A stretch of 64,000 bases of DNA from positions 617 through 64,616 of the forward strand of contig JAJFFE010000316.1 of the NCBI GenBank assembly GCA_021776775.1. The letters run 5' to 3'. Origin of the DNA: Planctomycetota bacterium. Lineage in GTDB: Bacteria > Planctomycetota > UBA8108 > UBA1146 > JAJFFE01. Under the pieces are notes generated by a model. That model searched no databases. It was not told the DNA's origin and saw only the letters and a list, made by a program, of their open reading frames with translations. Position numbers and translations under genes: made by a program. Positions 21 to 36,992 of this stretch are shown here, in pieces (position 1 is the first letter of the stretch; each line of letters opens with the position of its first letter).

Positions 21-443
21 TCAGTCCGCCCAGCGCGCAGTGATCTCCTTTTCGCCTTCGATGGTTCGGTGTACCGGGCACTTGTTCGCGATTTCGAGGA
101 GCCGTGCGCGTTGGTCGTCGTCGAGGTCTCCCTCGACGGTGATGATCCGCTCAATGCGGTCCACGCGCCCTTGTTCACTCTCACATGACTCGCAGTCTTT
201 GGCGTGGATCTTCGAGTGTTCCAGCCGGACCGAGATCTTCTCGACCGGCCACTTCTTCCGATCGGCGTACATGCGAAGCGTCATCGAGGTACACGTGCCG
301 AGCGCCGCCAGCAGAAGATCGTACGGGGTGGGGCCGGTGTCGAGCCCGCCGACGTCGGCGGGTTCATCGGCGAAGAAGGTGTGGTTTCCGGTGAGGACCT
401 CCTGCTGAAATCCCTTGCCCGTCTCGTTGACTGTGACGCTCAT
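21..443 (-). CDS. OsmC/Ohr-family peroxiredoxin-like protein
   Basis: Translation contains the OsmC-family core 'DTGPTPYDLLLAALGTCTSMTL' and is about 140 aa from the internal Met (MSVTVNETGKG). That Met is preceded by GGAACGGAACCACC-ATG. The ORF track extends to 533 (MESGG...), so the start is ambiguous. Confidence 0.8.
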   Translation of the reverse strand: MSVTVNETGKGFQQEVLTGNHTFFADEPADVGGLDTGPTPYDLLLAALGTCTSMTLRMYADRKKWPVEKISVRLEHSKIHAKDCESCESEQGRVDRIERIITVEGDLDDDQRARLLEIANKCPVHRTIEGEKEITARWAD

Positions 444-587
444 GGTGGTTCCGTTCCTGAGGAATCTGGCCGCTCGATTTCGTAGCAGCATAGGACGAGC
501 GAGATCTTCGCGCTCGGCTCCTCCAGATTCCACTCCTCGTCACAGAGTTACGGTCAGGCGCGGGCGGATAAGCACGGCAGGATGAGA

Positions 588-611
588 GGAAGGCCCCGTG
601 AAGGGCCTTCC
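588..611 (-). terminator. GC-rich hairpin downstream of the dockerin-module operon (putative terminator)
   Basis: Perfect inverted repeat ggaaggccc-cgtgaa-gggccttcc sits 38 nt past the stop of the 649..2508 gene. There is no clean U-tract, which is common in high-GC genomes. Confidence 0.35.
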
Positions 612-648
612 TAAGTGTCACATGATCGGCTGGGTCTGAATCACCCGA

Positions 649-2508
649 TCACGGGCAGTTGTCGAACTCGTCGCATGGTAATCGATCGGGGTTGGGCTCG
701 ACGCCGCAGGCGGCGAATGGCGCGGAGGGATCAGCGCCGCCATCGAACAGGCCGGTGAGCGCGAAAATCGGATCTCCGATATCGAGTCCGCCGTCAGCGT
801 TGATGTCCGCGGCGGCCGCGCATGGTGGTTCCGCCCCGGATTCGAAAAGGTGAGAGAGTAGGTAGATCGTGTCTGCGATGTCGTAGAGGCCGTCGTTGTT
901 CGCGTCGCCGCGCCGGAAGGGGACTTGGCTCGCAGCGACGGGTGCCACCGGGTTCAGCTCAACGTTGCCGTCGATCTCGGCCGGGTCGAGTGCCACTCCC
1001 GCGGAAATGAAGATGTTGGTGACGAGAGGTGTTCCGAGCGTCTCGGTCCAGGTAAGCGCAGCGTCGACGCTGTCGGAGAACCCGATCAGTTCGGCGGCGT
1101 TGGTCTGGTAAGCGACGGATACCAAACTCGCGGGGGCGTCGATCGTGATGGTCTCCGCGCCGAGGAAGCTGTAGACGGTGCCGAGCGTGACGCCGTCGGC
1201 GAACAGCGTCGCTTCGAAGTAGTCTGGACCGACCCCGCCGGCAAGTGCGGCGAGCGCGTTGACCGCAACGACGTTGGTCGCCTGAAGCGCGGTCTCCGGG
1301 TGCGCGAGTCCGAAGGAGAATCCTTGGGTGATCGTCGCGCCGGAGGCGTCGGAGAACAGGAGGTCGACCGAGAAGTTCGCGGCACCGGTGGCCGGGTCGA
1401 CGTCGATCGAGTGGTTTCCGGCGTCCATCACGAGGTCGCTACTCGTGGGTGGGTCAATCGGGCCACCACCACCCCCGGAGCCGCTATGCGGCGGCACGCC
1501 GGGCGGATTCGAGTCTTGGCTGTTGATGGTGATGAGTCCGTTGACCAACTCCGGCACGATCGGCTCGAGATCTTCCACCAACAACGTGTCGGTTTCCGGT
1601 ATGCCGACCGTGTCGCAGAACGCAATCTCGACGGCGGATCCGACCGGACCGACCAGGGAATACTCGACATCGAGAATTTCGAGGTCGTCTCCGACGGGAA
1701 GCACCACGCCGGCGAGGAAGCTGACCAAACAAAGGTTGAGCACGCCGTCGGAGTACGCCTCGGCGATCCAGAAGTCTGGATTGAGCGCCACGGTGTCGGC
1801 ACCCATGTTGGCCGAGATCGGATACAGGTCGTTTTCGTCGCTACAAATCGACATCGACCAGCCTCGAACCAACGACCCGCCATTATCGAACAGGACGGTG
1901 ACGTCGGCGCGTTCGTCGGCGGCGAACGTCGGAAGTTCGAAGCTGTAGTCACCGCTCCCCGTCGGCGGTGGGTCAATCGGTGGGTGCGGGTTGGGGTCAG
2001 TCGCGACGATCGTGATCGAGCCTGCGGTCGTCGTGGGTGTGATGGACACCATCTCGACGACCACCCACGGCAGTACGACCGGGGTGCCGAGCGTGCAAAT
2101 GGTCAACGGGCTGACTTCACCGGGAGCTCCGAGCATCGAGTACTCGATGTCGAGAACCTCCAAGCCGAAACCGACCGGGAAGACCTCGACGCTCATGAAG
2201 TCGACGATCATGCCGTACGTGACTCCGCCGCCTTCGAGATCGATCACGACAAAGTCCGGGTTCACCGCGACGACGTCGCTTCCCGGTTCCGCGGTTACGG
2301 GAAGCACCAGGGATGGCGTGCTGCACACGCCCATGGAGAATCCCCCTACGTTGCCACCCAGATTATCGAACTGTATGGTCGCGACGACTCGTTCGTCGCC
2401 GTCGACGTTCGGTGCGTTGAACGTGTAGTCACTGCTCTGGCAAAAGACAGTATCTGCGACAAAGAGCGTGCACAGAAGCACCGCTATCGCACGGGTTGTT
2501 CTCAGCAT
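649..2508 (-). CDS. Secreted protein with three ~170-aa cohesin-like tandem repeats and a C-terminal Cys-rich dockerin-like module
   Basis: N-terminal signal peptide MLRTTRAIAVLLCTLFVADTVFC. Three internal repeats start DYTFNAPNVDGDERVV.., DYSFELPTFAADERADV.. and DLVMDAGNHSIDVDPATG... Each carries AVNPDF / ALNPDF motifs reminiscent of the cohesin VYPD core. The protein ends RRGDANNDGLYDIADTIYLL...CAAAADINADGGLDIGDPIFAL...CDEFDNCP. Confidence 0.8.
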   Translation of the reverse strand: MLRTTRAIAVLLCTLFVADTVFCQSSDYTFNAPNVDGDERVVATIQFDNLGGNVGGFSMGVCSTPSLVLPVTAEPGSDVVAVNPDFVVIDLEGGGVTYGMIVDFMSVEVFPVGFGLEVLDIEYSMLGAPGEVSPLTICTLGTPVVLPWVVVEMVSITPTTTAGSITIVATDPNPHPPIDPPPTGSGDYSFELPTFAADERADVTVLFDNGGSLVRGWSMSICSDENDLYPISANMGADTVALNPDFWIAEAYSDGVLNLCLVSFLAGVVLPVGDDLEILDVEYSLVGPVGSAVEIAFCDTVGIPETDTLLVEDLEPIVPELVNGLITINSQDSNPPGVPPHSGSGGGGGPIDPPTSSDLVMDAGNHSIDVDPATGAANFSVDLLFSDASGATITQGFSFGLAHPETALQATNVVAVNALAALAGGVGPDYFEATLFADGVTLGTVYSFLGAETITIDAPASLVSVAYQTNAAELIGFSDSVDAALTWTETLGTPLVTNIFISAGVALDPAEIDGNVELNPVAPVAASQVPFRRGDANNDGLYDIADTIYLLSHLFESGAEPPCAAAADINADGGLDIGDPIFALTGLFDGGADPSAPFAACGVEPNPDRLPCDEFDNCP

Positions 2509-2521
2509 TCGGTGCTCCTTT

Positions 2522-2884
2522 CTACGGGCAAGCTACATAGGAATCGCAGGAGGTGAGGTCGGCGGTCGGATCGTCACCGCAGCTACTCGGCGGCGGAATC
2601 GGCGGAGATCCGGCGGTGAACAGGTCGGCCAGGAGCACGATGGGGTCGGCGATGTTGACTTCGCCATCGTCATTGATATCGGCGGCGTCGAGGCAGGGGA
2701 GGTCTGACTGACCCGATAGGAAGACCAAGCACTCTATGACGTCTGCGATGTTGATCGCGCCATCGCCTCCGATGTCACCCCGGACGAAGTCGTCCGCTAG
2801 CGCTTGATTCGGAGCGATCGAGACGACGACCGCCAGAGCAAGAGTCGCAAGCGCGCCCCCTAGGCTCTTGGAGAATTTCGACAT
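2522..2884 (-). CDS. Small secreted protein consisting only of signal peptide plus Cys-rich dockerin-like module
   Basis: Internal start MSKFSKSLGGALATLALAVVVSIAPNQALA (signal peptide) is preceded by GAGAGGAAACTCG-ATG. The remainder is VRGDIGGDGAINIADVIECL...CLDAADINDDGEVNIADPIVLL...CDSYVACP. The ORF track runs further upstream to 3034, but that N-terminal extension lacks a signal peptide. Confidence 0.7.
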   Translation of the reverse strand: MSKFSKSLGGALATLALAVVVSIAPNQALADDFVRGDIGGDGAINIADVIECLVFLSGQSDLPCLDAADINDDGEVNIADPIVLLADLFTAGSPPIPPPSSCGDDPTADLTSCDSYVACP

Positions 2885-3000: not shown

Positions 3001-4401
3001 TCATGGCGCGCACGACGTTGCCGGGTAGTAGCAATAGGGGAGAGTGTCGTCGGTCGAGTCAGCCGTGCACGGGCCGAAGGGGCTGCCCGTCGAGAAGAGT
3101 CCGTCCAAGATTTGAATGACGTCTCCGATCCCCATCGTGCCGTCGTCGTCGAAGTCGGCGGCGTCTTGACAGGTGGGAGTAGCGTCGTCGCCGAAGAGTG
3201 CCCCGAGTAGCAGAATCGGATCGGCGAGGTCAATCACGCCGTCGCCCGTGGCATCTCCGCGCCGGAAGTTGGTGATCGACGGAGTCGAGGCGTTGACGAA
3301 CACTTGCAGACTATTGGCGACCGAGTTCGCGACCACGACATCCAGGGCTCCGTCGCTGTTGACGTCGATCGATGTGAGAGAGACGCAGTTCGATTCGGTC
3401 GAAAAGACGACGGCGGCATCGAACCCACCAGAAAGGTCCCCTTCGTTGAACGACAACTCGTCACTGCCCGCGTTGACTGCCGCGACATCGATAGCGCCGT
3501 TCAAAGTGAAATCCGCGAGCAGGGTCGCTCGGGGTTGTTGACCCGCGGTCAGCGATACCGATGGAGCGAACCCTCCACCGGGCGTGGCGAGCATGAACGT
3601 AATGATGTCTTGGTTCGGGCAGGGAATGACCAGGTCCAAGAGGCCGTCTTGATTCAGGTCGTGCGTCGAGATGAACCAGATTGAATCGTCGATGCCGAGG
3701 TTGAACGGAACGATGGTCGGGAAGCCGCCGGTGCCGTCGCCGTGAAGCAAGCCGAAGGTGCTGTCCGTCGAGTTGCTGACCACGAGGTCGAGGTGGCTAT
3801 CGCCAGTGAACTCTCCGGACACCACGAACACCGGCGTCGTCAGGAACGCCAAGCCGAGGCTCGCCGAAAACGTGCCGTCCCCGTTTCCGTAGAACACTCG
3901 GAGCAAGTCGTCGCCGTGCGCCGTCACCGCGAGGTCGACCGAGCCGTCTTCGTTCAGGTCAGCGGTTGCCAAAGACGTTGGCGCGTTCCCGCATGGTATC
4001 GGTGTCTGTGGGATGAACGTCCCGTCGCCAACCCCGAGCAGCACCGTGAAGGACGCGTCGAAGATGTTGGCTGCGATCAGGTCGAGTACGGCGTCGTTGT
4101 TGACATCGTCGACGACCAAGAAGAACGGCGAGCCCGTGGCATACTCGACCATCGGCCCGAATCCACCGGTCCCGTCTCCCAGCGTGATCACTACGGAGGA
4201 GCCGAGGGTGCTCGCGATGGCAAGGTCCACGTGGCCGTCTCCGTCGAAGTCTCCCGAGACGACGCTTTGCGGAGTCTCCACACTTAGTGCTGCCGATTCC
4301 GCGAACTCGACGTCTCCGTGGCTCACGCCCGTCAAGCTTGCGAGTAACAGCGCCACGACCAGCACACGGCGACAGCTGTCGCGTATGGCTTTCGTTCTCA
4401 T
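3001..4401 (-). CDS. Secreted FG-GAP/VCBS-repeat beta-propeller protein with C-terminal Cys-rich dockerin-like module
   Basis: Signal peptide present. Repeated FG-GAP signatures: GDFDGDGHVDL, ADLNEDGSVDLAV, GEFTGDSHLDLVV, HDLNQDGLLDLV, IDVNSDGALDVVV. C-terminus RRGDATGDGVIDLADPILLL...CQDAADFDDDGTMGIGDVIQIL...CYYPATSCAP. The start overlaps the upstream gene stop by 4 nt (ATGA). Confidence 0.85.
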   Translation of the reverse strand: MRTKAIRDSCRRVLVVALLLASLTGVSHGDVEFAESAALSVETPQSVVSGDFDGDGHVDLAIASTLGSSVVITLGDGTGGFGPMVEYATGSPFFLVVDDVNNDAVLDLIAANIFDASFTVLLGVGDGTFIPQTPIPCGNAPTSLATADLNEDGSVDLAVTAHGDDLLRVFYGNGDGTFSASLGLAFLTTPVFVVSGEFTGDSHLDLVVSNSTDSTFGLLHGDGTGGFPTIVPFNLGIDDSIWFISTHDLNQDGLLDLVIPCPNQDIITFMLATPGGGFAPSVSLTAGQQPRATLLADFTLNGAIDVAAVNAGSDELSFNEGDLSGGFDAAVVFSTESNCVSLTSIDVNSDGALDVVVANSVANSLQVFVNASTPSITNFRRGDATGDGVIDLADPILLLGALFGDDATPTCQDAADFDDDGTMGIGDVIQILDGLFSTGSPFGPCTADSTDDTLPYCYYPATSCAP

Positions 4402-7289
4402 CGTTTCTCCTCCTCGTTCCCCGTTGTTGTCAGATTCAAAGAACGGTCGTCATAGTTGACCTGCAGGGTTGCGATAACACTGAGTTGGTTGGCCGGAGCG
4501 ACACTGACTTGTGCCCGTTCGCCACGCGGCCCGTCTCGCAGCGATACGGAGTAGTTGCCCGTTCCGAGGAAGTCGAATGTGACCTCTCCTTGGTCATCCG
4601 TTCGACCCAGATACACCGCGTCTGCGATATCCCACACTTCGGGGGTGATCCAGAGGTCGCGATGACCCAACGGCACTCCCGTCGTGTTGCTGATCCGGAG
4701 GGTGCGAGCGACGCGGGGTTCGAGCACGATTGGAATCGTGTCCGAGGCCGTCCACACGTAGAACGCGGCGGCATACTCTCGTGTGTAGACCATTCCGCGC
4801 GCGCCGAGGATCGCGGATCCGTCGTGAATCTTGCGCGGCCATCCGTCGAGGCCACCGAAGACAATGACCTCTTCGGTCGTCGGGTAGTCGCGGGGCAGCA
4901 GCACCAAGTTGCTGAGCGTGCGAATCGGTTGTCCGGTCGTGGATCGGAAATCCAACCGTCCGATGCGGTGAGTCGACGTGCGATCGACCACGAGGTCGAG
5001 GGTGTCGCCGACTTTGGCTCGGCACGTGTTTCTGGAGCCGAGGAACCCGAACCGGGGAACGTCGGCGTTGTTTGAGCGGATGAGATCGAACGGTCGCTCG
5101 ACCGCGAGCAGCAGTCCATGCGTGGCGCGCGTGCTTTCGTCACCGCGACTGGAAGTCTCGGCCAGGGCGCCCCAGCGTAGATCGTTGCGAGTCGCACGGA
5201 CCGGGGGGAGTTGACCGAACCCACCGAGTTCGAACCGCCCCTCGGCGTCGGTCGTGATGGACGGCCCCCAAAGTTCATCACCGAGAATGGACCCGATTTG
5301 CAGCGCCACGTCGGCGACCGGGGCGCCCGATCGATCGCGGACCGTGCCTCGGATGAACTCGCCGGCTCGCATTTCAACATCCGCGCGACGCGTTTCGTGG
5401 GCGACGAGATCCGAGATCGCGAACTCATCGCAGCGGTACTCGGCGTGCCAACCGGTGAGGAGGTAGTCGCCTTCCGCCACGCCCGTGAAGCGGTAGAGAC
5501 CGTCGTTATCGCTGGTCGCTTCGGGGAGGTCTCGCGCGAAGAACGTCCCCGTCTGTGGAATCAGGCGCATGCGAAGTCCCGCGAGCGCGGCGCCGTCCGG
5601 CGAAGTCGCGCGCCCTTCGACCACCGCGCCGTCGTCGAGCACGATGAGCGTTTGGTCCGTTGCCTTCAGCGCGCTCTGTGTCGTCGGGTGGTGGGGGTGG
5701 CGTACCGTGACTGCTACCGGCTCGTTTTCGGTGACGGCCAACAGGGTAACGATCCCTTCTTCGTCGCTGTGCGTCGTGAGGGGTGTTCCACGCCACTGCT
5801 TCGTTCGCATTTCGACGACGGCGCCGACCACCGGGACGCCGCGTTCGTCGACCACCGTGCAGTCCCAGGACTCTCCGCGTCGTAGTCGAACCGTGGACGA
5901 CGGTGCTCTTGCGACATCGCTTGCGGCCGCGCACCCATCCGTCTGAATGGAGTAGAAGACGGCGTTCGACTCCCACGAGAATTGCACCCGGCCGTCACGA
6001 TCTGAAACGAGAGTCTCGTACGTTCCCGACGCCGACGGTCCAACCGTGACGGGGACGCGAGCGAGTGGCCGGTCTTGCTCGTCGAGCACTTCGATCGAGC
6101 ACGTCATCGCTGGGTCGAGAACGATCACATACGGAGACGCGTCGGTCGTCCGCGATCGGCACGGCTCGCGATACTCTTGGAATCCCGTCGCTCTCACCGC
6201 AAGTCGCGCCGATGCAAACTCGGTCACGTCGACGGCGATGTATCCGTCCTCGTCGGTGACGCCGACGACTGCCGAAGCGAACGGCTGAGACAGAATGGAA
6301 GGAGCGTCGCGACCTCCGGAGGTGAGCGCGGAGACCATTCGCAGTTGTCCCGTCGAGACCGTGGCTCCGCGAATCGGCGTGCCCCCGATCGCGTTGAGCA
6401 CGCGGACTTGCTGTGTGCTTGCGGACGGCACCAGGGAGTTTGTCGCGACACCTTGTTCGGTCAGGTCGCGGGTAGACCTCGAGGCGTGATCACTGCCGCG
6501 AGTCGCGGTCGCACCCAAACCGTTGCCGGTAGACGTCGGCTGATTCGCAGCCGTCGGGTCCATCACGGTCGGTGAACCGCCGGGCGTGCCGTCCCAGAAA
6601 AGCCACACCAGAACGGCCAACGTCAACAGCGTGAGCGCGATCACTTTGCCTCGGCTGCGCATGGCTCGGTGATCCGTCGCGCGCGCCGTCGATGAACTTC
6701 CAGAGTCCCACGGAGCCGACTCGCGAAGCTGGTCGAGTAGTACCGGTTCTATCCCCGGCCCGACGCCGCCGAGCAGAATCAAGAACGCGAGTCGACGATC
6801 TCCATCTTCGCTCGTGAACTTCTCGCGCAATAGCGCGAGGCCACGCTTGATCTGCACCCGAACCGTGTTCGTCGCAACGCCGCGAATCTCGCCGATCTCC
6901 GCGGCGGTGTGCCCCCCGTAGAAGTGGAGCGTCACGACGCTTCGATACGGCTCGCGCAGGCTTAGTACATCTTGCGTCAGCGTCTTGCGCAGTTCGCGCG
7001 CTTCACACGGATCGTCGCCAGGGTCGATGGCTTCCGGGCGCGCGGTCGCTTGTTCGCGGTTTCGGCGACGCCCGCTCTCCCGAAACGATCGTCGCGCAAA
7101 GTTGCGCAGTACCGTGGACAGCCACGATGTCAGTTTTTCGCGCTGTTCGGGGGGCTTGCCGAGGGCGGCGACGTAGGTCATCTGCACAATGTCGTCGGCG
7201 GCACTCTCGTCGCGAACCAAGCTGCGGGCCAGTTTCTGCAGCCAGTCGGAGTGAGAGATCAGCTCTTGTTCGAGCATGTCCGGTGGCAT
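4398..7289 (-). CDS. ECF sigma factor fused to a transmembrane helix and a large extracytoplasmic CarboxypepD_reg-like repeat domain
   Basis: N-terminal ~180 aa has sigma-70 region 2 (DDIVQMTYVAAL) and region 4 HTH (LREPYRSVVTLHFYGGHTAAEIGEIRGVATNTVRVQIKRGLALLREKF). The frame then continues with no stop into MRSRGKVIALTLLTLAVLVWLFW (TM helix) and ~750 aa holding at least 5 Ig-like units of CarboxypepD_reg type (e.g. IRGTVRDRSGAPVADVALQIGS...TTDAEGRFEL). Confidence 0.8.
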   Translation of the reverse strand: MPPDMLEQELISHSDWLQKLARSLVRDESAADDIVQMTYVAALGKPPEQREKLTSWLSTVLRNFARRSFRESGRRRNREQATARPEAIDPGDDPCEARELRKTLTQDVLSLREPYRSVVTLHFYGGHTAAEIGEIRGVATNTVRVQIKRGLALLREKFTSEDGDRRLAFLILLGGVGPGIEPVLLDQLRESAPWDSGSSSTARATDHRAMRSRGKVIALTLLTLAVLVWLFWDGTPGGSPTVMDPTAANQPTSTGNGLGATATRGSDHASRSTRDLTEQGVATNSLVPSASTQQVRVLNAIGGTPIRGATVSTGQLRMVSALTSGGRDAPSILSQPFASAVVGVTDEDGYIAVDVTEFASARLAVRATGFQEYREPCRSRTTDASPYVIVLDPAMTCSIEVLDEQDRPLARVPVTVGPSASGTYETLVSDRDGRVQFSWESNAVFYSIQTDGCAAASDVARAPSSTVRLRRGESWDCTVVDERGVPVVGAVVEMRTKQWRGTPLTTHSDEEGIVTLLAVTENEPVAVTVRHPHHPTTQSALKATDQTLIVLDDGAVVEGRATSPDGAALAGLRMRLIPQTGTFFARDLPEATSDNDGLYRFTGVAEGDYLLTGWHAEYRCDEFAISDLVAHETRRADVEMRAGEFIRGTVRDRSGAPVADVALQIGSILGDELWGPSITTDAEGRFELGGFGQLPPVRATRNDLRWGALAETSSRGDESTRATHGLLLAVERPFDLIRSNNADVPRFGFLGSRNTCRAKVGDTLDLVVDRTSTHRIGRLDFRSTTGQPIRTLSNLVLLPRDYPTTEEVIVFGGLDGWPRKIHDGSAILGARGMVYTREYAAAFYVWTASDTIPIVLEPRVARTLRISNTTGVPLGHRDLWITPEVWDIADAVYLGRTDDQGEVTFDFLGTGNYSVSLRDGPRGERAQVSVAPANQLSVIATLQVNYDDRSLNLTTTGNEEEKR

Positions 7290-7905: not shown

Positions 7906-8496
7906 ATGACTGAGCACGACGATAGTGACGAACGAGTGCGAACCGTAACTCGCCTTCTCGGCGCCTTGGACGACATCCCCGGGGAACCGTCGGAGGCGTT
8001 GCTGCCCATCGTGTACGAAGAGCTTCGCGCTATCGCACGCCGTCGCATGGTGGAAGAGCCGGCCGGGCACACCCTGCAAGGGACCGCACTGGTCCACGAA
8101 GCGTTTCTTCGTCTCGTCAAAGACGAAGGAGCCCGCTGGCAGAATCGTCGCCACTTCTTCGCCGCGGCCGCAGAGGCGATGCGCCGCATCCTGATCGAGC
8201 GCGCGCGCCGCGTTTCGCGGGTGAAGCGCGGAGTTGACCGACGCCGCGTGGACATCGATGAGATCGAGGTCACGGCCGAACCGCAGAGCCACAGCCTTCT
8301 CGATCTAGATGAAGCGCTGATCGAGTTCGAGTCACGCTTCCCCGACAAGGCGAAGATCGTCAAACTGCGCTACTTCGCAGGGCTGACCGCCGCGGAAACA
8401 GCAGACGTCATCGGTGTTGCGGAGATCACCGTGCACAAGCAGTGGCGCTTCGCGCGCGCGTGGTTGCTGCGCTTCCTCGGCGGCGCTGCTCAATAG
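7906..8496 (+). CDS. ECF-type RNA polymerase sigma factor (planctomycete Sigma70_ECF / PF07638-like)
   Basis: 196 aa. Region-2-like LPIVYEELRAIARRRM...ALVHEAFLRL. C-terminal HTH KIVKLRYFAGLTAAETADVIGVAEITVHKQWRFARAWL. This architecture is typical of the kinase-associated ECF group. Confidence 0.85.
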   Translation: MTEHDDSDERVRTVTRLLGALDDIPGEPSEALLPIVYEELRAIARRRMVEEPAGHTLQGTALVHEAFLRLVKDEGARWQNRRHFFAAAAEAMRRILIERARRVSRVKRGVDRRRVDIDEIEVTAEPQSHSLLDLDEALIEFESRFPDKAKIVKLRYFAGLTAAETADVIGVAEITVHKQWRFARAWLLRFLGGAAQ

Positions 8497-9388: not shown

Positions 9389-11884
9389 CTAGGATCCGGT
9401 CCCGAGTTTGGGAGTCGGCCGCTCGGGCGGGGGTTCGCCGTACAAGATCGCCTCGTACGTGGCCACTTCGAATGGCTTCTCGAGCCGCTTGAACAGCGTG
9501 ATGAGATGCTCGAGCGTGCTTTGAGATCGGGGGTGGTGGGGCCCGATTTCACGGAGCTGAATGCTCCACGCGTGGAGCAGCGCTTGTTTGGCTCCGTCCA
9601 GATCGCCCGCACCTATGAGACATGCGCCCTGCAGCGAATAGGATGCTGCCGCAGAGACTGAGTCCTTGCCGTGTAGTGTTTCGATGAGCTCGGTCGATTC
9701 TTGGTAGTACGTCGCCGCTTCGGCGTGCTCGCCGCGATAGACCAAGCAGTCGGCGAGGCCGCGAATCGGCATGATCATGTTCACCGTCGGGCGATCGAAG
9801 TCGAGGCGCGCGCGTTGGTCGCGAAACAGCGCCTCCGCGCGAGCGATCTCGCCACTTCGCATGAGCGCGTGCGCGTAACCGCTCTCGGCTCGCATGCGCA
9901 ACGGGTGGCTATCGCGATACTCTTTCTTCAATGATTCGATCGCTGAAACGTAGAGCTGCTCCGACTCGTCACTGTCGTTCGTGAACGGTGCGAAGTCGAG
10001 CATTGCAATGATGACGCGCCGTTCGGAGGGATCGCCGCTTCGAATGATCTTGTAGGTGACCTCGCGGAGTTGTTGGATCCCATCCAGACTCTTCTTCGGA
10101 TCGATCGAATAGGCGAGCAGTCTGGCGAGGGACCGCTCTGTGGACAATCGGCGCGGGTGTAGTTCAGGAAGAATGCGTTCACCAATAGCACGGCTTCGGC
10201 GCAGGATCTCCTTGGCGCGGTCGTAGTCGTGTTCTCCGCTGTATATGTCGGCGAGCGCGTTCAGCATGTCGACCGTATCGGTGTGCTCTTCTCCGTTCAG
10301 GTCGATGGTGTCGGCCAAGCACTCCTCGGCGAATGGGATCGCCTTGCCGGGCATGCCGTTGTGATTGAGGGCGCGGGCGATGGCAGAGAGGAGGTCGAGA
10401 CGGAGTTGCTTGCGGTGCGCGAATTCGACGCGTACCTGCTCGCCCATCGATACCAGCAGGTCGACGAGTTTGACGTCGGGACCTTCGAGGTCAGGAGAGG
10501 GCGCGGTGAACACCCTCATCAAGAACTGGTTTATCTCGTTGGCTCGCGTCGCCTCGTTCTGGGCTTGAATCGCCGCAAGCTCTGCTTTGCCTTTTTCTCG
10601 AAGGGCGAGCACGGTTCCGATCGACAGCGCGATGATCGCGACCGCCATTGCGCCGAGGATGGCGCGGTGGCGTTTGGTGTACTTGGTCAGTAGATAGATC
10701 GTGCTTGCGGGTCGTGCCGAGATCGGTTCGTTGTGGCGGTAGCGGCGAAGATCGGCCGAGAACTCCGAGACCGTCTGGTACCGGCGATCCCGTTCCTTGG
10801 CCAGAGCCTTGGCGACAATGGTCGCCAAGTCGCCGCGGTACGCTCGATCGACAGAATGCAGCGACAGGGCGTCTACTTCCTTGATGATGCTGATCGCTTC
10901 GTGAAGCGTCTTGCCCTTCACGTCGTTGGGCAGGCTCCCCGCGAGCAGCTCGAACAGCACGACGCCGAGGGAATAGACGTCCGATCGTGTGTCGAGAAGA
11001 TCCGGATCCCCGCTTGCCTGCTCTGGGCTCATGTACTGAACCGTACCGAGGATTTGACCGGCGTAGGTATGCGGGGCGGCTTCGTCGTCACTGTCGGACG
11101 AGAAGACGCGCGCGACGCCGAAGTCGAGCACCTTTACCCGGCCGGACTCGTCGACCAAGATGTTGGCCGGCTTCAGGTCTCGGTGGATGACTCCCTTTTG
11201 GTGGGCGTGTTGAACCGCTTCGCAGATTTGCTGGAAGAGTTCGAGTTTAGCGTCGGTATCGAGACTGTGGATCGTAACGAACTTCGTAATGGAGACGCCT
11301 TGCACGAACTCCATGGCGAAGAACGGGATGCGCTGGCCGTTCCCGGTAGCGGTCCCCGCCTCGAAAACACGGGCAATGTTCGGGTGCTCGAGCAGTCCGA
11401 GCACTTGGGATTCGTGCTCGAAGCGACGCTCGGCGCTCTGCGACGGAAACGCGCTGCGCATCACTTTCAGCGCGACCGTGCGCTTGGGGCTGTCCTGCTC
11501 GGCGCGATAGACCACGCCCATTCCGCCTTCGCCGATCGGTTCGATCAAGCGGTAGTGACCGACCCGCTGTCCCGGTTCGAGTTCGTTCTCTTGGAGCAGT
11601 GCGTGGATGGCGATCGGGTCGGGATCGAGCAGAGGTGTTTCGGACGCGTCACATTCCAGGAGCGCGTGCAGCTCGGCGCGAACGGTCGAGTCTTCCAGCG
11701 CTTCGAGGAACTGCTCCCGAGCTTCACCGACCAACTCCACGGCACGATCGAAGAGCGACTCGAGTTCGCGATCGCTGGGTAAGGTCGGTTTTCGTGACAC
11801 AGTTCGTTCCCCCCAGCCCGGATTCACCGCCGTTGAATGGTCGCCCGATCGCTCAATGATACGGGTGGCGACGACGACTTCCAC
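9389..11884 (-). CDS. Serine/threonine protein kinase with transmembrane segment and C-terminal TPR-like domain
   Basis: Hanks kinase motifs GHYRLIEPIGEGGMGVVYRA, VALKV, HRDLKPANILV, DFGVA, GTVQYMSPE. TM ILGAMAVAIIALSIGTVLAL. The long C-terminal helical repeat region is TPR-like. An alternative GTG start at 11800 has a GGGGGGAA SD. Confidence 0.9.
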   Translation of the reverse strand: MEVVVATRIIERSGDHSTAVNPGWGERTVSRKPTLPSDRELESLFDRAVELVGEAREQFLEALEDSTVRAELHALLECDASETPLLDPDPIAIHALLQENELEPGQRVGHYRLIEPIGEGGMGVVYRAEQDSPKRTVALKVMRSAFPSQSAERRFEHESQVLGLLEHPNIARVFEAGTATGNGQRIPFFAMEFVQGVSITKFVTIHSLDTDAKLELFQQICEAVQHAHQKGVIHRDLKPANILVDESGRVKVLDFGVARVFSSDSDDEAAPHTYAGQILGTVQYMSPEQASGDPDLLDTRSDVYSLGVVLFELLAGSLPNDVKGKTLHEAISIIKEVDALSLHSVDRAYRGDLATIVAKALAKERDRRYQTVSEFSADLRRYRHNEPISARPASTIYLLTKYTKRHRAILGAMAVAIIALSIGTVLALREKGKAELAAIQAQNEATRANEINQFLMRVFTAPSPDLEGPDVKLVDLLVSMGEQVRVEFAHRKQLRLDLLSAIARALNHNGMPGKAIPFAEECLADTIDLNGEEHTDTVDMLNALADIYSGEHDYDRAKEILRRSRAIGERILPELHPRRLSTERSLARLLAYSIDPKKSLDGIQQLREVTYKIIRSGDPSERRVIIAMLDFAPFTNDSDESEQLYVSAIESLKKEYRDSHPLRMRAESGYAHALMRSGEIARAEALFRDQRARLDFDRPTVNMIMPIRGLADCLVYRGEHAEAATYYQESTELIETLHGKDSVSAAASYSLQGACLIGAGDLDGAKQALLHAWSIQLREIGPHHPRSQSTLEHLITLFKRLEKPFEVATYEAILYGEPPPERPTPKLGTGS

Positions 11885-31739: not shown

Positions 31740-34700
31740 TTAGGGACAGGTGTACTCGAGACACGTCTCGCCACTCGGAGTGGGATCTGGCAGACACTCC
31801 CCGAACGGCGACGGTGGAGCCGCTCCGTCGAGGAAAATGTACTGCAGCATGTAGATCACGTCCCCGAGGTCGACCATGCCGTCATCGTTGTGGTCGCACG
31901 CGGAGAGGCAGCTGCTCACCGGGAAACCCTGGAACGTGAACCGCATGATCTTGATGGCGTCGGCCATGTTGACGATGCCATCCGAGTTGCAGTCACCGCG
32001 AATGAACGCCGGATCCGGATCGGGGTCGACCATGACCGTAGCGATCTGGCTCGTCACCGAACCGCACGCGTTCGTGATCACGACTTCGTAGACTCCGGAG
32101 TCCGTCGGCTGCGCGTCGGTGATGGTCAGCGTGGATCCGGTTTCACCCAGGATCTCTAAGCCGTCCAAGAGCCACTGGTACGAGAACGGCCCAGTGCCGT
32201 CGACCGCAACAGTGAGCGTTACCGTTGCGCCGACAGCGAACATGCCACCGACCGGCTGCGCCGTGATCGTCGGCGCTTCGCCGACGGTGACGTTTGCCGA
32301 TCCGCTCGTCACGCTGCCGCAGTCGTTAGAGACGACGACGTCGTAGCTGCCGGCGTCGCTCGCGACTGGACTCGGGATATCGAACGACGACATCGTCGCG
32401 CCCGGAATATCCACGCCGTCGCGGCGCCACTGGTACGTGAACGGACTCGAGCCCGACGCGGTCACCGACATGCTGATCGGATCGCCTTCGCAGACATCCG
32501 CGTCGGCCGGGTCGGTCACGCTCGGAGGAGTGAGAACCGAGAGGTTCCCGCCGCCGCTGGTGACGGTTCCACATGCATTCGACACTTCGACCGTGTAGTT
32601 GCCGGCGTCGGCCGTGGCGGCCGCGGCCACGTCGAACGACGCGCTCGTGGCGCCCGCGATCGGTGAGCCGTCGACGAACCACTGGTACGACAGCGGAGCA
32701 CTGCCGGCGGCCGCGACCGAGAACGACGCCGACATGCCTTCGCACGTCGTCTCGTCCTGCGGATCGGCGGTGATCGTCGGTGCGGTTTGCACGACGAGCG
32801 ACGCGGGGTCACTGGTCGCCGAACCACAATCGTTGCTCACCGTCACCGAGAAGTCCCCAGCGTCCGCGGTCGAGACCGAGGCGATGGTATAGGAGCTACT
32901 CGTGGCGCCCGGGATCGCGGTGCCGTTCATCAACCATTGGAAGGTGAGAGGCGCGTCTCCCGAAGCGGTCGCGGTGAACGTTGCCGAGTCGCCTTCGCAG
33001 GCGGTGACGTCGTCCGGGCTCGCCACGATTTCGGCCCGAGCTTGCACCACGAGAGTGGCGCCCATGCTCGTCGCCGTTCCACAGACATTCGTGACTTCGA
33101 CGGTGTAGGTACCAGCGTCGCCAACTGTCGTGGCGGGGATCATGTACGAGTCGCCGGTCGCACCGGGGATCATGGCGCCGTTCATGAACCACTGATACGT
33201 CAGGGGAGCGGTGCCGGTCGCGGTGACCGAAAAGCTCGCGCTATCACCGGAACATGCGGTTGCCGAACTCGGCTGCGACGTGATTGCCGCCGCCGTGTCG
33301 ACCGTCAACGTCGCGGCGCCGCTGGTCGCGGTACCGCAGTCGTTGGTGACCGTGACCGTGTAGCTTCCCGCGTCGCCTGCCGCCATGGCAGCGATGAGGT
33401 AGGAGTCGCTCGTGGCACCAGGAATCGCGGCTCCGTCGAGGAACCACTGGTACGTCAGCGGCGCGTCGCCACTGGCCGTGACCATGAACGTCGCCGAGTC
33501 GCCTTCGCAACCCGTGACGCTCGCCGGTCCCGTGACGATCGCCGCCGCCACCCCGACCGTCAGAGTTGCGCCGACGCTAGTGGCGCTACCGCACGCGTTG
33601 GTGACTTCGACGGAGTAGTTGCCGGCGTCACCGACAGCCGCAGCCGCGATCATGTAGGTCGCCGACGTGGCACCGGGGATCGCGGTTCCGTCCTTCGACC
33701 ATTGGTACGACAGCGGTGCGGTCCCGGTCGCGGTGACCGAGAAGGTGACGCTGTCACCCTCGCACGAGGTCGAGCCTAAGGGTTGGGAGGTGATTTCCGG
33801 GGCGGTGTCGACCGTCAACGTGGCGGCGTCGCTGATTGCGGTTCCGCAATCGTTCTCGACCGACACGGAGTAACTTCCGGCGTCACCGAGCGCGGCGGAT
33901 GCGATCGAGTACGTGCTACCCGTCGCACCCGGAACGGCGATTCCGTCCTTGAACCACTGAAAGAGTAGTGGAGCGTCGCCCGTGGCGGTCACGGCGAAGC
34001 TTGCCATGTCGCCTTCGCAGACCGAGGTAGAGCTGGGCTGAGCGGTGATCGCCGGTGCGATTTCGACCGTCAGCACGGCGCCCGAGCTGGTCGCTGTGCC
34101 GCAGTTGTTCGACACTTCTACCGAGTAGGTACCCGCGTCGGAAACGGCGGCGCCGGCCAGCGTGAACGCGCTGCCGGTCGCACCAGGAATCGCAGTGCCG
34201 TCCTTGAACCATTGGTACATGAGCGGTGCGCTGCCGGTCGCGGTGATCGAGAAGGAAGCCGAGTCGCCTTCGCACACCGTGCTCGACAGTGGGTCGCTCG
34301 TGATGGCCGGCGCAGTTTCGACAACGAGCACCGCGGCGGTCGACGTGGCCGACCCGCAGTCGTTGGTCGCAGTGACCGAGTAGCTACCCGCGTCACCGGT
34401 CGCCGCCGATGCGATCGTGAACGAATTCATGGTGGCGCCCGGAATGGTGCTGCCGTCCTTCGACCACTGGTACGAGATCGGATCGCTGCCGGACGCCGTC
34501 ACACTGAACGTCACCGAGTCGCCGGCGCAGACGGTGCCGCCGGCTGGGTTCGCGGTGATCTCCGCGGCGGTGCGCACGGTGAGCAACGCGCCCGCGCTGG
34601 TCGCGGAGCCACAGTCGTTCGTGACCGTCGCCGAGTAGACGCCTGCGTCTGACGGCGAGCTGCTCATGACCGTCAAGCTGCTCGAGGTTGCGCCAGGGAT

Positions 34701-36992
34701 AGCCGTGCCGTCTTTCGACCACTGGTATGACAGCGGGCCGCTGCCGCTCGCCGTGATCGAGAAGGTGGCGGCGTCGCCTTCGCACACCGTCATGTCCGAC
34801 GGATCGACGTCGATCACGGGAGGCGTGCGAACGGTGAGGTCGGCGGCGCTACTCGTCACCGAGCCGCACTCGTTGGCGACAGTGACGGTGTAGGAGCCGG
34901 CATCCGCGACGGAGGCCGTCGCGATGCTGAACGACGTGTTCGTCGCTCCGGGAATCGCGCTACCGTTGAAGTTCCATTGGTAGGTCAGCGGTGTGCTGCC
35001 GGTCGCGGTGACGGTGACCGTGACCGAATCGTCTTCGCACACCGTTTGAGATTGCGGTTGGGCGGTGATAGCCGCCGGAGTCCGAACGGTGATCGCCACG
35101 CCGGACGACGTCGCGCTGCCGCAGCTGTTGGTTGCCACGATGTCGTAGGTGCCGGAATCGCCGACGCCGACCGACGCGATGGTGAACGAGCTGCCGGTCG
35201 CGCCGGGAATTGCGGAGCCGTTGCGTCGCCACTGCAGGGTGATCGGTGCCGATCCGTCGACCGTAGCCATGAACGTGACCGAGCTGCCTTGGCAAGGCGT
35301 CATCGAGTCGACGGACACTTGCACGATGGTCGGCGCGACTTCGACCGTGAGTACGGCCGCTTCGCTGGTGTCGCTACCGCAGCCGTTCGTCACGACGGCG
35401 TCGTAGCTGCCGGCGTTCGCTTCGGTCACTCCAGTCAAGCTCAGCGTGGTGCCGGTTTCGCCGGAGATCGGACTGCCGTTCTTGCGCCACTGAATGGTCG
35501 GTGCCGGGTCACCCGTCACCGAGACGGTGAAACTGACGTCACTGCCAACACACACGGTCTGATCGTCAGGGTCACTGACCGTTGGCGTGGTTTGCACGGT
35601 CAACGCGGCCGGCGCGCTGGTGAGCGTGACGCACGGGTTGGTGACCACGACGTCGTAGGTTCCTCCGTTGGAACTCGTCGCGGCACCGATAGTGAAGGTG
35701 GAGCTCGTCGCGCCCGGGATCGCCACGCCATCTTTGCGCCACTGATACGTGATCGTGGCGGTGCCGCTGGCATCGACGGAGAACGACACGGAATCGCCTT
35801 CGCAGACCGTCTGGTCGTTCGGCTGGGTATCGATCTGGCCCGAGCAGACGACGTGAATGATCGGGTCGCAGACGGTGTCGCCACCGAACTCGTCAGTAAC
35901 GTGGTACCAGAACGGGTGCGTTCCGATATCGGCCGCGGTCGGCGTCCACGTGAAGACGCTCGAGGTGCTAGTGCCGGGGCTGGAGTCGAGCGGCAGCGCC
36001 GGAGTGTGAACCGCGCCGGCCGGGAGACCGATCTCGGTGATGACCACGGACGCGTCGTAAGTGGTCGACTCTCCGTAGACGGTGAAGGTCAGGGTCTGAC
36101 CGACCTCGACGGTGTATTCCTCGCCGCCCGCGACCGGCACGCCGGCGGGGGTGAGTTCACAGATGGGCGGGGTGACGGGAGGTGTTGCCTCGAAGACGAT
36201 TCCGTCGATACCACCGGAGCCGTCGAGTTCGACTTCCATGCGGTGAACGCCGGAGACGCCCACGCCAGCTGCGCCGATGGTATGAATTCGGACGCCATTG
36301 CAACCCGTCGCTCCGAGTGAGAACGCTGCGATCAGGCTACCGGAGGAATCGTAGAGACGCGCCGTGCCGGGCGCTTCGGATGCTTCACCATCGATCGTCG
36401 TGATTTCGAAGATGGTGATGTCTGTCGGGACGAACGGCGCGGTGATCGTCGAAAAGTCGAAGTCGAAGATCATGTCCGATTGGGCGGCGTCGTCCGGGTC
36501 GTCGACGAAGCCGTCGGCGGGCGACGTGTCGACCAAGTCTTCCGCGAAGATCAGGATCTTACCGAGGGGGAAACTGTTCTCGAACGGCTGGCCCATCTCA
36601 CCCGCGGGACCCATGCCCGGTCCGCCGAACGTGTTGTTCGGTGAGCCGAGGTCGAAGTCTCCGCCGGTGGGGTTGGAGCTGTCGAAGATCAAAGCTCGGT
36701 TGGTGCCGGGATCACTTGGGATCGAGCCGTCGAGCCCGATCGGACCGACCGCAGTGCCGGCCGCGTCGCCGTCCACGGACGAAACCACTTCACCGGTGCT
36801 ATGGCTCTCGAAGTCGATGACCGCGGTCACGCCTTGTGCGCTAGCGGTCCGTGTCCCAAACGCCATCGATAGTGCCACGGCAGCGATGGAAAGCCATCGC
36901 AGACCGGTGGCAACGGGTGCGTTCTGCACTGTAATCCCCCTCGATTTTTTCAGCGGTTTTGAGCCCGAGGCAGCGCCCGCCCACACGAACAA
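31740..36992 (-). CDS. Giant secreted protein with 15 tandem Ig-like (I-set type) repeats and C-terminal Cys-rich dockerin-like module
   Basis: 15 repeats of ~85 aa with core QxxTVCEGDSxTFSVTATGxxPLxYQWxKDGxAIPGATxSxxTIxxAxxxDAGxYxVxVxNxCGxxTSxxAxLTV. C-terminus IRGDCNSDGIVNMADAIKIM...CLSACDHNDDGMVDLGDVIYML...CLEYTCP. The likely true start is GTG at 36929 (SD GAGGGGGA) giving a signal peptide. The ORF track starts at the ATG at 36992. Confidence 0.9.
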   Translation of the reverse strand: MFVWAGAASGSKPLKKSRGITVQNAPVATGLRWLSIAAVALSMAFGTRTASAQGVTAVIDFESHSTGEVVSSVDGDAAGTAVGPIGLDGSIPSDPGTNRALIFDSSNPTGGDFDLGSPNNTFGGPGMGPAGEMGQPFENSFPLGKILIFAEDLVDTSPADGFVDDPDDAAQSDMIFDFDFSTITAPFVPTDITIFEITTIDGEASEAPGTARLYDSSGSLIAAFSLGATGCNGVRIHTIGAAGVGVSGVHRMEVELDGSGGIDGIVFEATPPVTPPICELTPAGVPVAGGEEYTVEVGQTLTFTVYGESTTYDASVVITEIGLPAGAVHTPALPLDSSPGTSTSSVFTWTPTAADIGTHPFWYHVTDEFGGDTVCDPIIHVVCSGQIDTQPNDQTVCEGDSVSFSVDASGTATITYQWRKDGVAIPGATSSTFTIGAATSSNGGTYDVVVTNPCVTLTSAPAALTVQTTPTVSDPDDQTVCVGSDVSFTVSVTGDPAPTIQWRKNGSPISGETGTTLSLTGVTEANAGSYDAVVTNGCGSDTSEAAVLTVEVAPTIVQVSVDSMTPCQGSSVTFMATVDGSAPITLQWRRNGSAIPGATGSSFTIASVGVGDSGTYDIVATNSCGSATSSGVAITVRTPAAITAQPQSQTVCEDDSVTVTVTATGSTPLTYQWNFNGSAIPGATNTSFSIATASVADAGSYTVTVANECGSVTSSAADLTVRTPPVIDVDPSDMTVCEGDAATFSITASGSGPLSYQWSKDGTAIPGATSSSLTVMSSSPSDAGVYSATVTNDCGSATSAGALLTVRTAAEITANPAGGTVCAGDSVTFSVTASGSDPISYQWSKDGSTIPGATMNSFTIASAATGDAGSYSVTATNDCGSATSTAAVLVVETAPAITSDPLSSTVCEGDSASFSITATGSAPLMYQWFKDGTAIPGATGSAFTLAGAAVSDAGTYSVEVSNNCGTATSSGAVLTVEIAPAITAQPSSTSVCEGDMASFAVTATGDAPLLFQWFKDGIAVPGATGSTYSIASAALGDAGSYSVSVENDCGTAISDAATLTVDTAPEITSQPLGSTSCEGDSVTFSVTATGTAPLSYQWSKDGTAIPGATSATYMIAAAAVGDAGNYSVEVTNACGSATSVGATLTVGVAAAIVTGPASVTGCEGDSATFMVTASGDAPLTYQWFLDGAAIPGATSDSYLIAAMAAGDAGSYTVTVTNDCGTATSGAATLTVDTAAAITSQPSSATACSGDSASFSVTATGTAPLTYQWFMNGAMIPGATGDSYMIPATTVGDAGTYTVEVTNVCGTATSMGATLVVQARAEIVASPDDVTACEGDSATFTATASGDAPLTFQWLMNGTAIPGATSSSYTIASVSTADAGDFSVTVSNDCGSATSDPASLVVQTAPTITADPQDETTCEGMSASFSVAAAGSAPLSYQWFVDGSPIAGATSASFDVAAAATADAGNYTVEVSNACGTVTSGGGNLSVLTPPSVTDPADADVCEGDPISMSVTASGSSPFTYQWRRDGVDIPGATMSSFDIPSPVASDAGSYDVVVSNDCGSVTSGSANVTVGEAPTITAQPVGGMFAVGATVTLTVAVDGTGPFSYQWLLDGLEILGETGSTLTITDAQPTDSGVYEVVITNACGSVTSQIATVMVDPDPDPAFIRGDCNSDGIVNMADAIKIMRFTFQGFPVSSCLSACDHNDDGMVDLGDVIYMLQYIFLDGAAPPSPFGECLPDPTPSGETCLEYTCP
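32100..35850 (-). repeat. Tandem ~255-bp coding repeats (Ig-like domain array)
   Basis: Visible as the periodic recurrence of the ...YQW[FSRL]KDG... and ...CG[ST]ATS... codon blocks inside the giant gene. Confidence 0.8.

Follow-up and report, generated by a model that had tools for sequence, protein, structure and literature searches.

The gene at positions 649..2508 (minus strand, ATG start) of the 64-kb stretch of contig JAJFFE010000316.1 from a Planctomycetota bacterium (the window, meaning the whole of the DNA that was analysed, with a G+C content of approximately 62% throughout) encodes a 619-amino-acid protein, hereafter the target, that is related to cellulosome scaffolds but divergent and non-cellulolytic. 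This relationship follows from the cohesin-fold domains of the target, its dockerin with calcium-binding loops, and the conserved four-gene cassette to which its gene belongs. The protein consists of a predicted signal peptide, three repeats and a C-terminal module with two Ca loops, and is probably a secreted, non-catalytic scaffold, the cohesins of which would recruit dockerin-bearing proteins into an extracellular or cell-surface assembly with an adhesive or ligand-binding function. The combination of three cohesin-fold domains and a predicted signal peptide in one protein, with no catalytic domain, is that of a scaffoldin. A first-pass annotation of the window had proposed an open reading frame (ORF) with three tandem cohesin-like repeats and a Cys-rich dockerin-like module in a non-cellulolytic context, and the ORF is exactly where it was placed.

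All features of the target lie on the minus strand. The putative signal peptide (amino acids 1-23, MLRTTRAIAVLLCTLFVADTVFC, positions 2440..2508) was read from the sequence; the mature start of relatives falls at an equivalent A-Q-(N/S)-P-D-(Y/F) position, and an AlphaFold2 (AF2) model of the target has an N-terminal helix (amino acids 2-20) followed by a low-confidence break. Cohesin-fold repeat 1 (R1, amino acids 24-172, positions 1993..2439), which contains the Cys pair C63/C139, was delimited by its hidden Markov model (HMM) envelope, AF2 and Foldseek, and is separated by a Pro-rich linker (NPHPPIDPPPT, amino acids 173-183, positions 1960..1992, with a predicted local distance difference test score (pLDDT) <50 throughout) from repeat 2 (R2, amino acids 184-333, positions 1510..1959, delimited by its HMM envelope and BLASTP). 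A Pro/Gly-rich second linker (amino acids 334-361, positions 1426..1509, pLDDT <50 over amino acids 341-352) leads to repeat 3 (R3, amino acids 362-523, positions 940..1425, delimited by its HMM envelope), and the C-terminal module comprises a dockerin core (amino acids 531-592, positions 733..918) and a Pro-rich, Cys-bearing tail (amino acids 593-619, positions 652..732). Pairwise BLASTP of the segments relates R1 to R2 (39% identity over 157 amino acids, E 4e-37) and, more distantly, R1 to R3 (25% identity, E 1e-9) and R2 to R3 (22% identity, E 5e-9). The length of approximately 170 amino acids first given for the repeats is reached only by counting the Pro/Gly-rich linkers, the HMM envelopes giving approximately 150-160, and the motifs first quoted for them are literally present in R1 (FDNLGGNVGGFSMGVCS and AVNPDF) and R2 (FDNGGSLVRGWSMSICS and ALNPDF) but divergent in R3 (FSDASGATITQGFSFGLAH and VGPDYF). 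In the full-length AF2 model, three beta-sandwiches are predicted with confidence (block pLDDT mostly 87-98), the linkers are disordered, and the C-terminal domain contains three short helices.

On profile and model evidence, the cohesin fold of the repeats and their homology to cohesins may be regarded as established by the Pfam matches of relatives, the matches of a family profile to sequences of the Protein Data Bank (PDB) and the predicted structure of R1, the target alone failing the Pfam threshold. Because the target falls below that threshold, its membership of the cohesin and dockerin families is assigned through transitive, profile and fold evidence. The profile search that the first-pass annotation had suggested against Cohesin (PF00963) succeeded for relatives but not for the target itself. 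Pfam Cohesin is matched at E <= 1 (best 2.5e-11) by 16 of the 33 three-repeat relatives that could be aligned to the target over full length (23-37% identity), and seven of ten individually scanned relatives exceed its gathering score of 24.1 bits, mostly in the third repeat and sometimes in the second (P0006, 44.4 bits, E 2.5e-11; P0009, 38 bits; P0008, P0012, P0016, P0019 and P0020); the third repeat of P0003 has a weak match (E 0.014). A ten-repeat profile found only a non-significant cohesin match among PDB sequences (E 0.78). A 60-repeat family profile, built from an alignment with R1 of the target as its first row, had 15 matches at E <= 1 among all PDB sequences, 14 of them cohesins, the best being ScaC of R. 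flavefaciens (5lxv_A, 4.5e-4). In a residue-level alignment to 1qzn, the GPDF motif stands opposite a D-F that precedes strand 5 directly.

R1 is the repeat of the target least like Pfam Cohesin, and modelled alone by AF2 it gives a pLDDT of 96.6 and a predicted template modelling score (pTM) of 0.89. The best 50 listed Foldseek matches of this model in the PDB are all cohesins, of types I, II and III (TMq 0.57-0.78 overall and approximately 0.75 for the best single-domain matches, with root-mean-square deviation (rmsd) of approximately 2.5-3.4 Å over approximately 150 columns for those); with 1g1k the values are TMq 0.77, TMt 0.82 and rmsd 2.5 Å over 153 columns. Sequence identity in the Foldseek alignments to solved cohesins is only approximately 10-19%. 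The full-length model likewise has single-domain matches to type I cohesins (TMt 0.77-0.80). Assignment of the repeats to some non-cohesin family was looked for and none was obtained, so that the cohesin-like fold first proposed has held. Repeats of an immunoglobulin (Ig)/adhesin kind or carbohydrate-binding modules (CBMs) were considered and rejected: matches of the multi-domain model to PrgB and AgI/II (TM 0.15, rmsd 27 Å) are artefacts of beta-sandwich chaining, and the single-domain search with R1 lists only cohesins among its best 50.

The C-terminal module (amino acids 531-619) has two canonical 12-residue Ca loops, DANNDGLYDIAD (D535-A-N-N-D-G-L-Y-D-I-A-D546) and DINADGGLDIGD (D568-I-N-A-D-G-G-L-D-I-G-D579), with the defining residues D1, N3, D5, D9 and D12 in both, which is the arrangement of a type I dockerin, built of tandem segments of approximately 22 residues with an EF-hand-like loop and a helix in each. 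The AF2 model places helices at 544-555, 564-567 and 578-588, and the dockerin core is delimited by its loops, the model helix after each loop, and the family profile. Compared with PDB sequences by phmmer, the target alone has only a marginal dockerin match (2y3n_B, E 0.064), and at E <= 1 it has no match to Dockerin type I (PF00404, cut-off 22.9 bits). A profile of 26 modules, including all four found in the window, has 24 PDB matches, of which 20 are dockerins (2y3n_B, 2.5e-7; CelS structures 2mte and 1daq, approximately 1.5e-4). Dockerin_1 is matched at E <= 1 by 18 of the 33 three-repeat relatives (best 1.2e-7), and two other carriers of the module in the window come close to the PF00404 cut-off (the free dockerin with 21.8 bits, E 2e-4; the Ig-repeat giant with 20 bits, E 8e-4).

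The PDB dockerin matches cover positions 4-59 of the module profile. The Pro-rich tail (positions 60-90; pLDDT 48-61 in the AF2 model), which is specific to the family, lies beyond both of the alignments shown and the listed best PDB dockerin stretches, which end by position 61. Across 139 modules of the family, C563, located between the loops, and C601, C612 and C618, located in the tail, are invariant or nearly so; in the target the tail ends C-P. The Cys-rich dockerin-like character ascribed to the module in the first-pass annotation was therefore correct, given its two canonical Ca loops, its four Cys, and the family profile that finds PDB dockerins. An optional further Cys pair at positions equivalent to 536 and 567 is complete in 66 of the 139 modules, absent from 70 and half-present in three (Fisher p 4e-36); the target does not have it.

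The family evidently contains two classes of cohesin, here called type A if the repeat has a Cys pair and type B if it does not. Over 433 repeats, both Cys are present in 176, neither in 253 and only one in four (p 1e-118). In type A repeats one Cys belongs to the strand-3 motif (GFSMGVC) and the other to the strand-8 motif (LTIC or FC); the two covary almost without exception, which suggests a disulfide. First repeats are mostly of type A (96 of 117 in two-repeat proteins; 42 of 47 in three-repeat proteins), and later repeats are usually type B. The order in the target is A-A-B, R1 and R2 both resembling first repeats of other proteins and R3 having its nearest relatives among the second repeats of two-repeat and three-repeat proteins. 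The best outside match of R2 is repeat 1 of P0056, the product of an orthologous cassette (40% identity, E 1.8e-28), and the complete two-cohesin proteins P0035 and P0056 are colinear with amino acids 187-619 or 201-619 of the target (36% identity). Thus, judged by sequence relationships, the target is the common A-B-dockerin scaffold with a duplicated A domain.

An exhaustive HMMER search of 1.84 billion cluster representatives (50% identity clusters) with the ten-repeat profile retrieved 1,973 proteins at E <= 1e-3, 1,106 at E <= 1e-10 and 173 at E <= 1e-30. Among 157 retrieved proteins, 107 have two repeats, 35 three, eight four and four five; 137 have the Ca-loop motif within the last 100 residues, and a Cys is present among the last three residues of 139, typically as C-P. 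A word-indexed homologue search found four proteins from the target sequence and five from the 33-sequence alignment, and a contig search with the target protein found no relative among GTDB species representatives. Named records of the scaffold family are annotated "hypothetical protein" and derive from "Planctomycetota bacterium" metagenome-assembled genomes (MAGs), with the sole exception of a cluster annotated "M4 family metallopeptidase" (P0050/P0175, 1602 amino acids, MBA4684707.1), which has cohesins at amino acids 1191-1341 and 1345-1509 and a C-terminal dockerin. Another large protein (P0005 and P0153, 1676 amino acids, from L006/L007) has five cohesin repeats and a dockerin after approximately 780 amino acids that include a choice-of-anchor I domain (PF22494).

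The target gene is the fourth and last gene of a cassette on the minus strand that may be co-transcribed. The first gene (4398..7289) encodes a 963-amino-acid fusion protein, identified by Sigma70_r2, Sigma70_r4 and CarboxypepD_reg matches, in which regions 2 and 4 of an extracytoplasmic function (ECF) sigma factor are joined through one transmembrane segment to approximately 720 extracytoplasmic amino acids of CarboxypepD_reg/Big_1/MG4-like repeats. Its stop overlaps by 4 nt the start of the second gene (3001..4401), which encodes a 466-amino-acid FG-GAP propeller with a dockerin (FG-GAP_3, E 2e-32; module HMM, E 7e-21). The third gene (2522..2884), located 13 nt upstream of the target gene, encodes a secreted free dockerin of 120 amino acids consisting of a signal peptide and the module (module HMM, E 6e-28). 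A GC-rich hairpin (587..612, minus strand, 10-bp stem AGGAAGGCCC/GGGCCTTCCT with a 6-nt loop, no T-run) is located 37 nt past the target stop and possibly marks the end of the operon; a scan for consensus promoters and terminators found nothing above background and missed this hairpin.

In six-frame HMM scans of the window, the dockerin module occurs in exactly four ORFs (the target, the free dockerin, the FG-GAP protein and a distant Ig-repeat protein), and cohesins occur only in the target. The distant carrier (31740..36992, minus strand, 1750 amino acids; module HMM, E 2e-31) has at least 15 Ig domains (Ig_3 and I-set, 15 stretches each), and also PKD-like and CHU_C-associated Ig domains; its dockerin has the optional Cys pair. 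Pfam scans, which covered eight ORFs of the window, found no glycoside hydrolase domain on any of the four dockerin carriers. The non-cellulolytic context that had been proposed is therefore apparent, the carriers other than the target being a propeller, a free module and an Ig-repeat protein, but the Ig giant, counted among the neighbours in the first-pass annotation, is approximately 29 kb away.

The same four genes in the same order are found on contig SRR23272280_11457, where the fourth gene encodes P0056, and on an SRR23004070 contig, where it encodes P0035. Comparison with SRR23272280_11457, the contig of both L003 and L092, gives identities of 32% over 935 amino acids for the sigma fusion, 42% over the full length for the FG-GAP protein and 44% for the free dockerin. 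Gene calls likewise give one gene for the sigma fusion in L003/L092 and L010, and orthologues of the free dockerin (44-46% identity) are encoded directly upstream of a cohesin gene in L002, L003/L092 and L010. Eleven distinct contigs with relatives were considered (L002-L010, L093 and L094; L007 repeats the L006 protein), L002-L010 being scanned with the cohesin and dockerin HMMs and L093 and L094 judged by gene calls only, and seven of the 11 have at least one further dockerin gene in the locus. Between genomes, dockerins show a weak tendency to group by carrier (free with free, 45-51% identity; scaffold with scaffold, 49-53%; background approximately 32-49%).

Several of these loci contain other arrangements of the two modules. 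Proteins of 350-370 amino acids with one cohesin (Coh) between two dockerins (Doc) are encoded beside three-cohesin scaffolds (L003 8865..9935; L004 6189..7286; L005 2918..3973); in this Doc-Coh-Doc layout, a signal peptide is followed by a Cys-less N-terminal dockerin, the cohesin, and a Cys-tailed C-terminal dockerin, and from their sequences these proteins look like adaptors with two different dockerin types. In a marine metagenome contig (L008 1..21797, ENA ERZ908242), eight consecutive same-strand Coh(1-3)-Doc paralogues constitute a tandem scaffold expansion, followed by a 1682-amino-acid Big_5/FG-GAP/TIG protein with a dockerin. In the Planctomycetota MAG XB_MAG50, a GTDB representative (L083 1..13932), there are seven consecutive dockerin ORFs, one of which is Doc-Coh-Doc.

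According to the recruiting-scaffold interpretation, Sec export of the target would be followed by folding into three independent cohesin beta-sandwiches on flexible Pro-rich linkers, with the Ca2+-loop dockerin at the end. The cohesins would bind, in a Ca2+-dependent manner, dockerins carried by the co-encoded proteins and by other proteins, for example the Ig-repeat giant, producing an extracellular or cell-surface assembly that is adhesive or ligand-binding, and the dockerin of the scaffold itself would plug into a further cohesin. This interpretation is supported by the coupling of cohesin and dockerin genes, by the recurring cassette, and by the modular logic of the family (the M4 peptidase with Coh-Coh-Doc architecture, the eight paralogues), and the Cys-pair covariation in both cohesins and dockerins may be counted as an extracytoplasmic signature. 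A number of observations weigh against it. The target has no Pfam match at E <= 1, including Cohesin (cut-off 24.1 bits) and Dockerin_1, and NCBIfam found nothing meaningful on it; no S-layer homology (SLH) domain, sortase signal, lipobox or transmembrane segment was noticed in the scaffold, which has no Pfam domains. The full-length AF2 model has a pTM of only 0.41 with no fixed inter-domain arrangement, which indicates beads on a string. The sigma fusion has neither cohesin nor dockerin by HMM scan and is linked to the complex by synteny alone. The cassette was observed in only three contigs: a genome-contig search with the FG-GAP alignment found 80 generic FG-GAP loci in many phyla and no cassette, and a metagenome-contig search with the sigma-fusion alignment found one irrelevant short match.

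Other interpretations of the same architecture were weighed. That the target is a homotypic polymer is conceivable, though improbable: its own dockerin would bind its own type A or type B cohesins to give head-to-tail fibres or a lattice on the surface; the free dockerin would terminate chains or compete for binding, and the FG-GAP-dockerin protein would decorate the polymer. A single chain does combine cohesins with a dockerin, all of the same general type, in a Coh(n)-Doc layout kept by nearly every family member; the same I-A/G-D recognition positions in both dockerin segments are compatible with dual binding; and a cap or competitor role would explain the secreted dockerin-only protein encoded immediately upstream in four contigs. 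However, it is general cellulosome knowledge that the cohesins and the resident dockerin of characterised adaptor scaffoldins differ in specificity, which prevents self-binding, and the weak grouping of dockerins by carrier hints at distinct specificities in this family. It is doubtful that the modules do not pair at all, the dockerin being a sorting, anchoring or glycan-binding tag of many planctomycete secreted proteins, stabilised by Ca2+ and disulfides, and the cohesin folds being generic beta-sandwich spacers or ligand-binding (for example, carbohydrate-binding) adhesin domains. The extreme C-terminal position and near-invariant C-P end of the module (139 of 157 proteins) do resemble those of sorting tags, some clusters are rich in dockerins and poor in cohesins (seven dockerin carriers versus one cohesin in L083), and the cohesins of the target are too divergent for Pfam; but the Cys-less N-terminal dockerins of the Doc-Coh-Doc neighbours behave as modules rather than tags, cohesin genes repeatedly adjoin dockerin genes, the Ca-loop residues are canonical in both segments, and no CBM or Ig adhesin appears among the best 50 listed R1 matches. 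The multi-cohesin plus dockerin architecture with Pro-rich linkers is also that of a genuine cellulosomal scaffoldin for plant polysaccharide degradation, which is nevertheless very unlikely, considering that the signal peptide, three cohesins, linkers and one dockerin account for the whole chain, with no CBM or SLH match in Pfam or NCBIfam, that none of the four dockerin carriers of the window is a glycoside hydrolase, and that what is conserved alongside the scaffold is a sigma fusion, a propeller and a free dockerin.

The presence of the sigma fusion in the cassette recalls the SigI/RsgI systems of C. thermocellum, in which an alternative sigma factor that regulates cellulosome genes has a transmembrane coupling to a sensing domain outside the cell. 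In both cases, coupling of a sigma factor to the outside of the cell is genetically linked to cohesin-dockerin components. Unlike SigI/RsgI, the cassette encodes a single 963-amino-acid polypeptide with an ECF-type sigma factor and CarboxypepD_reg/Big_1 repeats instead of CBMs, and the regulatory link derives from synteny only. The cassette could be a self-contained surface-sensing device, in which a minimal cohesin-dockerin assembly of the two- or three-cohesin scaffold, the FG-GAP-dockerin protein and the free dockerin would have a mechanical or chemical coupling to the membrane-spanning ECF sigma factor, whose extracytoplasmic beta-sandwich array would report ligand or surface engagement to the transcription machinery; this more elaborate role is unlikely. 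The free dockerin would then be a competitor or cap, the two cohesin classes, one perhaps locked by a disulfide, would provide two orthogonal docking specificities, and the sigma fusion would be a fused, planctomycete-specific counterpart of RsgI/SigI control of cellulosomes. ECF sigma factors that are extended at the C-terminus form a known category (PMC7826278).

The recruiting scaffold proposed here most resembles the adaptor scaffoldins of cellulosomes, such as ScaA of Acetivibrio cellulolyticus, in having tandem cohesins of approximately 150 amino acids, Pro-rich linkers, and a C-terminal dockerin with two Ca loops. Structurally, R1 is matched best by cohesins of type I (1g1k, 2vn5, 5nrm, 4uyp and 6kgc; TM 0.75-0.82), and the full-length model of the target matches the cohesin dyad of ScaA (3l8q); the systems compared also include the type I cohesins of CipC of C. 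cellulolyticum, CipA of C. thermocellum and CipA of C. acetobutylicum. In contrast to adaptor scaffoldins, the target has no CBM, X-module or SLH domain; the partner dockerins are attached to a propeller and an Ig-repeat protein or stand alone as a free module, instead of being carried by glycoside hydrolases; the family has the Cys pair of type A cohesins and a Pro-rich dockerin tail, with four conserved Cys in the module; and the host is a planctomycete rather than an anaerobic Firmicute. Non-cellulosomal cohesin and dockerin modules were reportedly surveyed by Peer et al. in 2009, as cited in PMC6461901. The target shares with such modules their occurrence in proteins and organisms that have nothing to do with cellulose breakdown, and the cohesins 2xdh (Archaeoglobus fulgidus), 2jh2 and 2w1n (Clostridium perfringens) are all among the fold matches of R1. 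Most of the non-cellulosomal examples are lone modules attached to enzymes or toxins, whereas the target family consists of dedicated multi-cohesin scaffolds with two cohesin classes and a putative operon of their own.

Non-cellulosomal cohesin/dockerin systems in Planctomycetes are already known from bioinformatic descriptions. For freshwater Nemodlikiaceae, a non-cellulolytic extracellular complex of cohesins and dockerins named the "planctosome" has been proposed on bioinformatic grounds (Andrei et al. 2019, PMC6461901), its parts being an anchoring protein with lamin-tail/P-domain and a single cohesin, a Doc-HYR-Coh adaptor, and M12B and M14 peptidases with dockerins (PMC6461901). The family of the target has the peptidase theme in common with it, in the M4 peptidase with Coh-Coh-Doc architecture, but the cassette consists of a sigma fusion, an FG-GAP propeller, a free dockerin and a scaffold with two or three cohesins; both systems are known from sequence alone. 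The planctosome architectures were found neither among the eight window ORFs scanned with Pfam nor in the window with the family cohesin and dockerin HMMs. Expansions of dockerins have been noted in kelp-associated planctomycetes (PMC5264255), and a limited literature search found no paper describing a cassette of sigma fusion, propeller, free dockerin and scaffold. What seems to be new about the present system is the extreme degree to which it has diverged, together with the division of its cohesins into classes A and B with a covarying Cys pair, the Cys tail of its dockerin, and the four-gene cassette.

The family, with approximately 2,000 representatives, is mostly annotated "hypothetical protein" and is largely invisible to Pfam. 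To our knowledge, almost all experimental work on cohesins and dockerins concerns cellulolytic Firmicutes. Uncultured Planctomycetota apparently have a dedicated multi-cohesin scaffold system with putative disulfides, Doc-Coh-Doc adaptors and free dockerins, and through a conserved putative operon this system is linked to an integrin-like propeller and to a sigma factor tethered in the membrane. The binding of cohesin to dockerin ranks with the strongest protein-protein interactions known, and such pairs are in wide use for constructing synthetic assemblies. If the predicted binding is real, the family would supply new orthogonal, possibly oxidation-stabilised pairs, a handle on how planctomycetes build their cell surfaces or attach to particles, and a small, tractable four-gene model for the purely hypothetical "planctosome" idea.

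Other genes near the cassettes include, on SRR23272280_11457, a VgrG-like gene (Phage_GPD) and a DUF2169/pentapeptide gene just downstream of the gene for the three-cohesin protein P0006 (L003 12156..18505), and, after the cassette, a giant protein of the FG-GAP/Laminin_G_3/fn3 kind with more than 5,272 amino acids (L092 13023..21371). In the window, a planctomycete-type ECF sigma factor (7906..8496, plus strand; PF07638, E 4e-52), which like the names of the relatives points to a planctomycete host, adjoins an 831-amino-acid Ser/Thr kinase with a C-terminal array of tetratricopeptide repeats (9389..11884, minus strand). Directly downstream of the target gene, past the hairpin, is an OsmC-like gene (21..533, minus strand; PF02566) that is probably unrelated to the cassette.

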